A stretch of 64,000 bases of DNA from a virus. Its lineage: Duplodnaviria; Caudoviricetes. Position 1 is the stretch's first letter. Every line of letters starts with the position of its first letter. The stretch spans positions 21,041 to 85,040 of IMG/VR virus record IMGVR_UViG_2671180233_000001; one strand, written 5' to 3'. Below are positions 41,923-44,337 of this stretch, piece after piece. The notes below the pieces were generated by a model. The model worked only from the letters and a program-made list of their open reading frames with translations. It ran no database searches and had not been told where the DNA came from. Made by a program: the position numbers and the translations under genes.

Positions 41923-44337
41923 GTGAAAAATACAAAACATTTCGTTCAAAAATATTCACCACATACCAGCTTTAATGTGGCTAGATTTGACTCACTGGTA
42001 AATAGTGGATCCTGTTCAATTGGATATATTGCAGGGGACTACCGTCATTTGTCTGCAATAGTCACTGAAGATGCTACAGAAAATGATCTTTGGCATATCG
42101 TGAATTTCAATAAAGACAAAGCATATTTTGATTCCTGTGCTGTGCTTGGAGTTGTTGATGTAGAAGAAGCGCAGAACATAGCGCAACTCTATTTCGGGCG
42201 TATGTTTGATGGCATAGCCACGGATATTGTGGTTAGTAATGAAAATGGATTAAAACGGCATTTGGATCATCCAGGATATCATCAAGGGAATCGGCCATTG
42301 ATGAGCTGGCAATTAGAAAGATTACAGGATGTTCTTACCGGGACAATACCACAATGGGATGGACTACAGCTTCGTTCTCACTCAGGAAGTCTTGCGAACT
42401 TAATGTTCGATATGACCGTGCACGATGATGATAATGGGTTACTGACAGACTTCGATGGCCTACCTTCATTATTGGAACATTTAGATGGTGAGTATCAGGA
42501 ATTTGATGCCCTGATCGTAGATTACCAACATTTAGATAAATTCACTAGTCTGCTGCACAAAGCCATGAATACAGCATCTACAGGTGGTGTGTCTATTGCC
42601 AATGTTGAGATTTCCAAACCCTTTAAGCGCAAAAATGTCGTGAATGTGGCGGTTAGTTACAACATGGCAGATGGTCAAAGTTTGACGGTTGTATATCATA
42701 ATCCGGATAGTACACCCACAAAACTTGCTCCCAAGGATACATTGATTTCATGGAAAATCATGCTCAATAACCGAGATATAACTGGAGCAATTCAACCCAA
42801 TCAAGGCGAAGGAATTGCATTACCGATTCTTGCTGGCCGAATCATGCGGTTGGTTAATAAAAATAGTGCTCGGTTCCAGCGGACTCAAGCTAAAAAAGCC
42901 CAGAATCAACAATTATTGGCAGATGCTCAAGCTCGTATAGGTGAAAAAGAAAGAACTAAAGCTGATTTGGATGCCGAAATCGAAAGTTTAAAGTCTCAGC
43001 TTGATCAAGTTGTAGCGCAGAACACAGCAGCTGATACAACTATGTCTGCGGTTCAGGATCCTTTTGCCAGTAATGAAACTACTGATCTTTCTAAAATTCC
43101 AGCTGATTTACATGCAGATTTTAAAAAATACAATCGTTGGCTAAGTAAAGATGTGACGATGGGACTTACAACTGGGCATAGCTTGGGTAAAAATGTTCAA
43201 GGTGTTTTTGCAAGTGTGAAATATGATCTTGATGATCAAACTCTGGTGTTTGAAATTAAAACATCAAATAATCGTATAGTCGTGCTTAGACCAAATGATG
43301 GTCAATTGAGTTTAAGTAATGAGGAGGATCGTATTGCTGATTTAACTGGTGATATGTTTGAACCTGAACCTGAACCTGAACCTGAACCTGAACCTGAACC
43401 TGAACCTGAACCTGAACCTGAACCTGAACCTGAACCTGAACCTGAAGCAGTAGTCCTCACTGGTAAAGAGTTAGGTGAATTTCCAGATACGCCAGAGGGT
43501 AAAAAGGAATTACGTGCAACTGCCAAGGCAGAGTTTGAGAAATTGCTTGGCCAATGGGTAGAATGTCCTGCTTTGGATTCTACAGAGGGTAAAAGTGCTA
43601 AAATCGAAATCCGTAAACGTGGTATTAAAGAGTTTATGGCTTTCAGTGGCGATCCTCGTAAATTGCAATTAGTTGCAGCAATTTCAGACATCATCAAGAC
43701 AGCAAAACTACCTGCGAACGGATGGCAAGATAATCAGAAATTAGATAAGAAACCTAGAGTTAAAGGATACTATCACCTAACCAATACCGTGAAGATTGAT
43801 GATAAAAATATTGATATTAGGGTTGTCATAGAAAAAGATGATGGTGGTTTGCTGCACTATGACATTATTGTGCCCAAATCGGTAGAGGAAGTATTTGATT
43901 CGATATTATATGAAAAAAGCAGATGCTCTAGCCCTGATAACTATTCAGGGGAAACATCTGCCTTTGATAAAATTAAATCACAAGACGAAAATTTAGTCAA
44001 CGAGTTTGATGCAGCGTCAAAACAGAAATACGTCCTAAACCTTTTCATTGAAGGCGAAGATGATATTGAGGATGAGTTTGAAGACGAGGAAAATTTAGAG
44101 GACCAGCCCGCATCTGAACCAGAACCAAACCCAGTATTTAATGCAATCATTACTGGACAAAAAACCTTGTCGGTTGATACAGTTCAAGAGGCAATTAATG
44201 AAGCAAAAGTAGAACCAGGACATCAGCAATTAATTCCAGCTACATTGGCTTTATACCAGCAATATCAGATTCAACATGGGTTTGACAGTATTAATCTGGA
44301 ACAAATGATAGAACAAGGAGAAGTTGCTAAATTATAG
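41923..44337 (+). CDS. darA: DarA-like polyvalent head protein (DarA_N, coiled coil, PE linker, LPD3 domain)
   Basis: DGQSLTVVYHNPD.TP......W..LNNRDIT...KNSARF (DarA_N); LTGKELG..LR..AK..IEIRKRGIKE..LHYD (LPD3). Confidence 0.75.
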   Translation: MKNTKHFVQKYSPHTSFNVARFDSLVNSGSCSIGYIAGDYRHLSAIVTEDATENDLWHIVNFNKDKAYFDSCAVLGVVDVEEAQNIAQLYFGRMFDGIATDIVVSNENGLKRHLDHPGYHQGNRPLMSWQLERLQDVLTGTIPQWDGLQLRSHSGSLANLMFDMTVHDDDNGLLTDFDGLPSLLEHLDGEYQEFDALIVDYQHLDKFTSLLHKAMNTASTGGVSIANVEISKPFKRKNVVNVAVSYNMADGQSLTVVYHNPDSTPTKLAPKDTLISWKIMLNNRDITGAIQPNQGEGIALPILAGRIMRLVNKNSARFQRTQAKKAQNQQLLADAQARIGEKERTKADLDAEIESLKSQLDQVVAQNTAADTTMSAVQDPFASNETTDLSKIPADLHADFKKYNRWLSKDVTMGLTTGHSLGKNVQGVFASVKYDLDDQTLVFEIKTSNNRIVVLRPNDGQLSLSNEEDRIADLTGDMFEPEPEPEPEPEPEPEPEPEPEPEPEPEPEAVVLTGKELGEFPDTPEGKKELRATAKAEFEKLLGQWVECPALDSTEGKSAKIEIRKRGIKEFMAFSGDPRKLQLVAAISDIIKTAKLPANGWQDNQKLDKKPRVKGYYHLTNTVKIDDKNIDIRVVIEKDDGGLLHYDIIVPKSVEEVFDSILYEKSRCSSPDNYSGETSAFDKIKSQDENLVNEFDAASKQKYVLNLFIEGEDDIEDEFEDEENLEDQPASEPEPNPVFNAIITGQKTLSVDTVQEAINEAKVEPGHQQLIPATLALYQQYQIQHGFDSINLEQMIEQGEVAKL
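43360..43443 (+). repeat. (GAACCT)14 in-frame tandem repeat encoding (EP)14
   Basis: Perfect hexamer array read directly. Confidence 0.97.
43915..44000 (-). ncRNA. Putative antisense hairpin RNA and its promoter inside darA
   Basis: Minus-strand TTGACT-N17-TTTAAT with extended TG (44000-43972); stems GCAGATG/CATCTGC and CCCTGA/TCAGGG. Confidence 0.5.

Follow-up and report, generated by a model that had tools for sequence, protein, structure and literature searches.

The stretch of viral DNA analysed here, called the window below, is 64,000 nucleotides (nt) long and corresponds to positions 21,041 to 85,040 of the IMG/VR record IMGVR_UViG_2671180233_000001 (Duplodnaviria; Caudoviricetes). It is part of a prophage in a 3.79-Mb genome. 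One of its open reading frames (ORFs), 41923-44337, encodes a DarA-like virion protein whose order, with Pfam as the guide, is DarA_N (residues 193-315), a (PE)n linker, LPD3 (residues 526-646) and an acidic C-terminal part. The subject of this analysis is the linker of about 30 residues that follows LPD3: its opposite strand appears to carry a complete small RNA gene, with a promoter, a hairpin and a terminator of its own, dual-coded with the protein (Table 1). The initial annotation of the window, made from the letters alone, had placed an LPD3 domain in this frame and a structured antisense element just behind it. Both are found where it put them: family PF18798 matches the ORF with 63.8 bits (E 2.1e-17, cut-off 27), and the two nested stems, the hexamer pair TTGACT-N17-TTTAAT with its TG extension and the heptanucleotide GCCTTTG are all present when the sequence is read directly. 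A search of the whole genome with PF18798 at E<=1 gives one match only, the darA-like ORF (67.9 bits). LPD3 is one of 40 "large polyvalent protein-associated domains", the precise functions of which are called elusive in the accessible part of the study that discusses them (PMC5512222).

Table 1. Features of the darA-like locus in the window, and free-standing copies of the element (coordinates of the latter are those of their own loci)
Feature	Position	Strand	Basis or remark
DarA-like virion protein gene, 804 aa	41923..44337	+	ORF list and Pfam
LPD3 coding region, residues 526-646	43498..43860	+	PF18798
U6 tract after the hairpin, intrinsic-terminator shape	43913..43918	-	sequence and fold; sense A6, codons E-K-S
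Hairpin of the predicted RNA of about 50-55 nt	43915..43965	-	fold, covariance model R1
Conserved 19-nt hairpin top, CCCUGAAUAGUUAUCAGGG	43932..43950	-	sense strand encodes P-D-N-Y-S-G
Predicted -10 region, TG-n-TTTAAT (spacer 17) or TAATTT (spacer 19)	43970..43980	-	sequence; opposite K-I-K-S codons
Alternative overlapping promoter-like site, TTGACG-N19-TAAATT	43990..44020	-	highest position weight matrix (PWM) score within 70 nt on the upstream side of the hairpin
Predicted -35, TTGACT	43995..44000	-	sequence; opposite L-V-N codons tTA GTC AAc
Free-standing copy, L052	4507-4620	+	canonical promoter, T-rich terminator
Free-standing copy, L045	8866-8978	+	canonical promoter, T-rich terminator
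Free-standing copy, L073	1400-1560	+	canonical promoter, T-rich terminator

The hairpin has a 14-bp lower stem, bulges of 1 nt and 3 nt, a 6-bp upper stem and a 7-nt loop, AUAGUUA. Written in the sense strand, the arms of its outer stem are GCAGATG (43919-43925) and CATCTGC (43955-43961), those of its inner stem are CCCTGA (43932-43937) and TCAGGG (43945-43950), and the peptide encoded across it is K-S-R-C-S-S-P-D-N-Y-S-G-E-T-S-A-F. The minus strand folds with -26.7 kcal/mol (z -5.74), and none of 200 shuffled sequences is equally stable. The plus-strand fold of 43915-43965 is the less stable of the two, at -21.1 kcal/mol (z -3.76). Among 25,578 sliding windows of 60 nt, taken from both strands of the 64 kb, this hairpin is the third most stable locus. 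With shuffles that preserve the encoded peptide, the minus strand gives z -3.5 (0/200) and the plus strand z -2.0 (7/200). The covariance model R1 scores the hairpin with 42.8 bits (E 2e-12), the sequence of the window being itself part of the R1 seed. Rfam 15 has no match in the window and none in four related loci; at E<=10 only chance-level rows appear. The element is single-copy in the genome.

The hexamers that would drive transcription through this hairpin lie upstream of it on the minus strand. The position of the TTGACT is homologous to a TGAC that is conserved in 22 other lineages. The TTTAAT occupies 43977-43972 and its extended TG 43980-43979, and at this place the closest homologues carry TGnTTTAAT or TAATAT. 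The score that the PWM assigns to the alternative site of Table 1 is matched by 2.7% of null windows, the matrix having been built from hexamer frequencies.

The following comparisons suggest that the hairpin is maintained as an RNA structure. A peptide-motif search of homologous loci found eight distinct instances in seven sources, and all eight carry the 19-nt core CCCTGAT[A/C]AC[N]ATTCAGGG, with every synonymous position included. The outer stems differ from lineage to lineage and nevertheless compensate: GCAGATG/CATCTGC in the window, and GTGCTTGA/TCAAGCAC, TGCCTGA/TCAGGCA, TGTCTGAG/CTCAGACA and GTGTCGG/CCGACAC in others. This compensation runs through non-synonymous changes; since the stem arms pair codon against codon, outer-stem changes alter the protein on both sides. 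In the protein homologue P0004 (75% identity), residues E..F stand at the mirrored stem codons where the window has R..S, and these codons would probably pair as well. The second unit of locus L054 contains a synonymous compensating pair, in which CCT/TCA is replaced by CCC/TCG.

When the DNA core alone was searched for in IMG/VR, 26 matches in 20 contigs were obtained. The 25 distinct hairpin copies align without gaps on the minus strand. Helix positions are paired in 81.8% of the cells of this alignment, compared with 65.8 +/- 1.4 in shuffled alignments (0/500 as high), and the covariation score is 0.462, compared with 0.172 after shuffling and 0.09-0.135 when the partner columns are slid. 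The core columns were fixed by the search pattern and are uninformative in this respect; the outer columns were unselected, and in the outer helix 16 of 16 pairs vary on both sides. The helix of the putative RNA is under selection. When all 29 units are shuffled synonymously, 16 of them surpass 195 or more of their 200 shuffles in folding stability on one or both strands.

Two features suggest which strand is used. G.U pairs over the 25 distinct hairpins number 77 on the minus strand versus 29 on the plus strand, and the minus strand folds more stably in the window and in most high-GC copies. The functional strand thus looks like the minus strand, antisense to the LPD3 genes. A U-rich tail, read by eye, follows the hairpin in 17 of the 19 family members listed.

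The association of the core with LPD3 is close. Our own LPD3 profile is positive in 17 of the 20 core-bearing contigs. Of the three others, L047 looks like a chance match to the core; L045 and L052 are considered below. In all ten large ORFs given to Pfam, LPD3 ends 20-28 residues upstream of the core, and the element follows LPD3 in the architectures DarA_N-LPD3, InPase-DarA_N-LPD3, LPD3-methyltransferase and LPD3-DUF2958. R1 finds 11 matches in 8 of 42 loci; all are at LPD3 of the window subtype, and DarA loci that lack LPD3 give no match. The PDxxSG core is missing from the distant LPD3 domains of L065-L070, which belong to other families, and two of these, L065 and L069, are also without a reverse promoter; the unit is therefore not universal to PF18798.

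The initial annotation had proposed a scan for reverse promoters behind LPD3 domains, and the scan bears out the expectation. It covered 33 distinct segments, all of which include the end of the domain and the next 330 nt (at 80% identity they form 25 clusters), and used a consensus promoter search with spacers of 16-19 nt. LPD3 occurs in only 5 of 401 genomes phylum-wide, so the sample consists mostly of Moraxellaceae and IMG/VR proviruses. A reverse sigma70-like site lies behind the domain in 30 of the 33 segments and in 23 of the 25 clusters, the misses being L013, L065 and L069. The density of such sites in the 370 nt after LPD3 is 3.28 per kb; the remainder of that strand in the loci has 0.78 per kb, and the sense strand of the segments themselves has 0.49 per kb. 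Lineages without the core also have the reverse promoter (L004, L016, L021, L023, L025, L031, L036, L040, L066 and L075). In the distant LPD3 gene of the Acinetobacter soli plasmid pGFJ2, the best promoter, TTGACG-17-TATACT (10/12), is reverse and directly behind LPD3, and the only terminator found in a 3.2-kb scan of coding sequence is also reverse and right behind the domain.

The spacer is variable in sequence and the hexamers are kept. In the -10, TA is retained as the last two letters of the V, I or L codons GTA, ATA, CTA and TTA. The TGAC of the -35, in 23 rows, stands in codon phase 2 in 18 and in phase 0 in four, with phase 1 for the alternative that the PWM chose in the window; it is read as V-N/M/T/K in 18 rows and as S-Q, C-Q or G-Q in four. 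In the PWM test the best upstream site is reached by <=5% of null windows in 19 of 22 elements (exceptions L013, L061 and L073). The pattern of conservation is that of a predicted promoter and not of a peptide.

Copies of the element also exist outside LPD3 genes, and we regard them as the decisive evidence. L045 and L052 are proviruses rated 100% complete, in which no LPD3 is found at E<=0.01. Their elements read GTGACA-N17-TACACT (L052) and ATGACA-N17-TAGACT (L045), followed in both by 6 nt, the core hairpin, 5 nt, a second hairpin and a run of T residues, T9 in L052 and T8 in L045. They are surrounded by short ORFs or intergenic DNA. To judge by its layout, this is a small-RNA gene of textbook form, and its strand corresponds to the antisense strand of the LPD3 genes. 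In a third free-standing copy (L073), in a genome of the same family, the T-tract comes directly after the core hairpin, and the copy adjoins a PmgG-like head gene. One of the free-standing copies is near an integrase and one is convergent with a gene for an HNH endonuclease. The LPD3 genes read the parts of this RNA gene as protein: the U-tract becomes K-rich codons, the terminator hairpin A-M-L-D-S, the core P-D-H/N-x-S-G, the -10 S-V and the -35 V-M/N. The number of hairpins is variable. The window has one, while high-GC relatives have two, 60-63 nt apart; Psychrobacter-type DarA-like genes have two full promoter-hairpin-terminator units 123-125 nt apart (L013 1428-1604; also L017, L034 and L062), a doubling that duplicates the linker peptide. 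The initial annotation held that LPD3 and its convergent RNA travel as one unit. They are indeed kept together in several architectures, and LPD3 and the RNA probably work as a pair, but the unit is separable, as stand-alone copies occur in LPD3-less proviruses.

The predicted RNAs form a conserved and uncatalogued family, whose members are placed tail-to-tail against LPD3 domains in prophages, and the element of the window is very probably a real RNA gene. Its action can be pictured as follows. The sigma70-type promoter, with its -35 at 44000-43995, would start the RNA near 43965, at the foot of the long hairpin, and the same hairpin together with the U6 tract would terminate it. The host polymerase would make this RNA in the lysogen or early in infection. 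It would then meet the complementary hairpin of the sense messenger RNA (mRNA) loop-to-loop and subsequently pair with it. The pairing would reduce the amount of LPD3-carrying protein that is made, in the way that OOP of phage lambda reduces cII. We consider it somewhat more probable than improbable that 43913-44000 is, in its entirety, such a small antisense RNA gene, dual-coded with the linker and acting to lower the output of the LPD3-carrying protein. Taken by itself, the proposition that cis-antisense control is the main role of the RNA falls just short of an even chance in our analysis.

A number of points weigh against this interpretation. Where the transcript starts and ends, and that it is made at all, are predictions. 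The -10 of the window is weak: TTTAAT is without the A at -11, and TAATTT needs a 19-nt spacer. A consensus promoter scan of 41000-46000 does not list TTGACT-N17-TTTAAT because its -10 has no A at position 2; the scan reports 14 promoter-like sites in this region, with 16.9 +/- 4.4 expected, hence no excess. Thirteen of the 29 units show no folding excess over synonymous shuffles, and neither do the second copies in high-GC tandems when the peptide is held fixed. The copies are homologous, and counts across them overstate their independence. Moreover, the conservation is in part explained by the peptide, since the -35 and the hairpin top overlap the near-invariant motifs VN and PDNYSG. The RNA lies opposite the linker and not opposite the part of the gene that codes for LPD3, which offers no evident route to a lower LPD3 output. 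The 19-nt top is kept in non-coding copies, yet sequence conservation is not required for antisense action in cis; a protein or a partner in trans is suggested rather than simple antisense pairing. Finally, a 335-nt contig of run X2, from a near relative, has only two differences to 43916-44009 and is unlike the window over the preceding 241 nt.

Cis-antisense control is followed in our ranking by a protein-binding antidote and then by action in trans or exclusion. What places the antidote second is that conservation of the hairpin top extends to copies with no coding sequence opposite. As an antidote, the RNA would bind LPD3 in the manner of a type III antitoxin and restrain a toxic, tRNase-like domain, acting as a decoy that mimics the anticodon arm of tRNA-Thr(UGU) until packaging. 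The structure predicted for LPD3 bears on this possibility. The AlphaFold2 (AF2) model has a pLDDT of 88, and Foldseek finds nothing in the Protein Data Bank (PDB) for it at E<=0.001. In a wide structure search the best row is CdiA-CT (7m5f_C; Z 5.2, rmsd 3.3, 87 residues aligned), followed by 6cp9_A (Z 4.8) and BrnT (4.7); RelE, ParE, YoeB, YafQ, MqsR and colicin D are at 3.5-4.2, and there are many rows of RelE, ParE, CdiA-CT and colicin D at Z 3.2-4.8. All of these matches are below Z 8, the line under which caution is needed as the arrangement might be a common one. They hint that LPD3 may have the fold of a BECR/RelE-type RNase toxin. The initial annotation had called LPD3 a nuclease domain; the nature of the best rows agrees with this, and their level (Z<=5.2, none reaching 8) falls short of establishing it.

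The likeness to tRNA concerns the hairpin top, 43934-43950 on the minus strand. The nearest among 59 host tRNA arms is the anticodon arm of tRNA-Thr(UGU), with 5 of 17 positions different and four of five stem pairs identical; the arm that comes next has 8 differences. The loop consensus of the RNA family is A-U-N-G-U-K-A. This likeness serves as the basis of the substrate-mimic reading only. It was found post hoc, and loop positions 32 and 37 are unlike tRNA, as are the six stem pairs in place of five. Other LPD3 lineages carry unrelated hairpins, and stand-alone copies occur in proviruses that lack LPD3. Although a conserved top is more than pure cis-antisense action requires, and the loop consensus and the weak fold matches speak for the idea, we regard an antidote of this type as unlikely. 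Its most specific form, in which LPD3 is a tRNA-directed toxin of BECR/RelE fold and the backward RNA in its linker blocks the active site as a tRNA-Thr(UGU) mimic until packaging or injection, is less likely again.

The stand-alone copies themselves suggest that the RNA might act in trans. The RNA made by a prophage would target the linker hairpin of incoming related phages, or a target in the host, and its position in the linker would be the outcome of a gene fusion. The copy near the integrase lies in a region that is usual for genes expressed in the lysogen, and contact with foreign copies could begin as a kissing interaction at the conserved loop. There is a precedent in STnc6030 of prophage BTP1, an RNA antisense to the tailspike gene that limits superinfection, according to the accessible part of the source (PMC12197685). 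However, the outer stems differ by lineage, leaving only about 19 nt to pair in trans, and no second copy of the core is found in the stand-alone provirus loci (one match each) or in the genome studied here. Such a role is improbable as the principal one.

It is more improbable still that there is no RNA gene and that the conservation resides in the linker peptide, FD..PDNYSG..NIKS..VN.FD, perhaps as a signal for the prohead protease or for packaging, with the hairpin and the hexamers as by-products. The peptide is well conserved: in 15 aligned proteins F695 and D696 are invariant, and P671, D672, S675, G676, V692 and N693 nearly so. The codons for P-D..S-G alone yield an inverted repeat of 4-5 bp, and 13 of the 29 units fold no better than expected from their synonymous shuffles. 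Against this, the outer stems covary through changes that are not synonymous, the non-coding copies keep the core, the promoter and the T8-T9 terminator, the -35 is in a different frame in four lineages and the TA of the -10 in four codons, and G.U pairs favour one strand.

The junction in run X2 bears on a further explanation, in which the hairpin acts at the DNA level as a site of recombination or module exchange that marks domain boundaries of polyvalent proteins. These proteins are highly mosaic, as the accessible text of their description states (PMC5512222). The likeness of the X2 contig begins exactly at 43916, and modules are therefore exchangeable at the end of the RNA gene; another contig extends the match downstream to 44140. 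Runs X2-X4 were compared through DNA contigs, and the parts of the window that these do not cover are uninformative. A DNA element would leave the promoter, the U-tracts, the G.U asymmetry and the intergenic stand-alone genes unexplained, and this one is single-copy in the genome. We consider the explanation very improbable. The reading as a repeat or mobile element is rejected, as both this site (43913-44000) and the other site of the initial annotation (8476-8605) are single-copy in the genome. Hardly credible, and rejected for inconsistent phase and want of a spacer, is a sense-strand structure in which an A-run and the hairpin cause a ribosomal pause or -1 frameshift that yields a truncated DarA_N-LPD3 product: an A5-A7 run does precede the hairpin in most low-GC copies and the -1 frame of the window stops at the TAG 43929-31, but the codon phase of the run differs among copies, L015 and L042 have no such run, and only 0-1 nt separates the run from the stem; in addition, the minus-strand fold is the better one in the window and is richer in G.U pairs across the family, and the stand-alone copies are non-coding.

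The initial annotation regarded the darA-like gene as the second of two LPD3 genes in the window, the first being ORF 7455-8474 with an RNA element at 8476-8605, and took the common start AAAGGC of the two predicted RNAs (GCCTTTG in the plus strand, at 8568-8574 and 43960-43966) as a shared feature. Neither statement is upheld by sequence comparison. In ORF 7455-8474 Pfam recognizes DUF4365 only and not PF18798, its C-terminal 171 aa match no Pfam family at E<=10, and hhalign aligns it to LPD3 with a probability of 0.24%. In the model of its C-terminal 190 residues (150-339; AF2 pLDDT 82), helices and strands follow one another as they do in that of LPD3, and the two models share weak top rows in the PDB (6cp9_A, 7m5f_C, 7vd7_A and BrnT, Z 4.0-5.2); the label may thus be right at the level of the fold. 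The element behind this ORF has a strong predicted promoter, TTGACA-16-TATTAT (11/12), and persists in the only genome of the family in which the gene occurs, where GGCGG/CCGCC has undergone a compensating change to GGCAG/CTGCC. It has no word longer than 10 nt in common with the LPD3 hairpin, and R1 does not match it at E<=10; as predicted RNAs, the two are unrelated. GCCTTTG is not conserved: the relative of the first site reads GCCAAAG, and the LPD3 homologues differ at the foot of the stem. We read the shared heptanucleotide as a coincidence.

The nearest named relatives of ORF 41923-44337 are from Acinetobacter. Among GenBank phages, Acinetobacter phage vB_AbaM_ABMM1 matches it in the N-terminal DarA part only, and the LPD3-linker part has no match there, in DNA or protein; among plasmids there is no DNA match and one distant protein match. 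Scans of the collections with the protein alignment gave four loci in genomes, six in viral contigs and two in metagenomes. For the RNA family, public records name Psychrobacter and a Halothiobacillaceae metagenome-assembled genome, and Pseudomonas protein homologues exist. Ahead of LPD3, a perfect (CCTGAA)n repeat at 43352-43457 encodes the (PE)n linker. Its length in the assembly may be uncertain, because the contigs of the best holder break there (43305-43457 uncovered). Elsewhere in the window, R1 has a weak match at 48194-48232 (+), antisense to ORF 47728-48723, which is probably due to chance (10.8 bits, E 0.75). Other very stable hairpins occur at 12866-12945, 39326-39385 and 35601-35660 (-26 to -29 kcal/mol within 60 nt), two of them inside long ORFs, namely a leucine-rich repeat (LRR) gene and ORF 34502-36127.

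The predicted RNA gene has parallels in several known systems. In the type I pairs txpA/RatA and bsrG/SR4 of Bacillus prophages, the antisense RNA overlaps the 3' end of the toxin gene. The convergent layout, the position of the RNA just after the toxic part, which here would be LPD3, and the location in a prophage are alike. However, a type I toxin is a small hydrophobic peptide of the membrane, whereas the putatively toxic partner here is a soluble-looking domain of 121 residues in a virion protein of 804. In type III systems such as ToxIN, promoter, RNA repeats, terminator and toxin follow one another on one strand. A structured RNA that is sometimes in tandem, as are the hairpins 60-63 nt apart in high-GC relatives, and possibly binds an RNase-like protein would resemble this. 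Here, in contrast, the RNA gene is downstream of LPD3 and convergent, not upstream and co-oriented.

A close parallel in phages is lambda OOP, a short countertranscript from pO that is antisense to cII and promotes RNase III-dependent decay of its target, as given in the accessible part of the source (PMC12197685). Like OOP, the predicted RNA would be short, encoded by a phage and transcribed from a promoter of its own towards a protein-coding gene whose mRNA it complements, and at the sequence level it has both a reverse promoter and an intrinsic terminator (hairpin and U6), each by prediction. Unlike OOP, promoter and RNA gene are wholly inside one ORF and dual-coded with a linker, they are tied to one domain family in many architectures, the sequence of the hairpin top is conserved, and the RNA is predicted from sequence. 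STnc6030 of the Salmonella prophage BTP1, as described in a review (PMC12197685), is comparable: like the predicted RNA, it is encoded by a prophage, lies antisense to a late gene for a structural or virion component, and is plausibly produced in lysogens. The RNA of the window is much shorter, little more than a terminator hairpin, and an exclusion phenotype is known for STnc6030 and not for the window RNA. A T5 tRNA neutralizes PARIS as a tRNA-type decoy against an anticodon nuclease, according to the available text (PMC11464382), and an RNA resembling a tRNA anticodon arm might similarly neutralize a tRNA-directed nuclease; here there is only a hairpin (12 of 17 positions alike), and the supposed nuclease would be a domain of the phage itself. 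In the literature we found no paper on antisense RNA behind LPD3 or DarA, and the word "antisense" occurs 0 times in the accessible text of PMC5512222.

A dedicated RNA partner, conserved wherever this clade of LPD3 occurs, would be the first experimental handle on LPD3. The locus further suggests that a full RNA gene, with promoter and terminator, can hide in-frame in a protein linker, where gene callers and RNA-family scans both miss it, and it may be the opposite strand that keeps the linker motifs PDNYSG, NIKS and VN conserved. If the antidote reading were true, the pair would constitute a new kind of toxin and antidote, in which a substrate-mimic RNA is dual-coded inside the gene of the toxin itself, and prophages would also carry a free-standing "immunity RNA" against phages armed with LPD3. 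Copies that stand free in prophages without LPD3 are a hint that phages may hold RNA-based immunity against one another.

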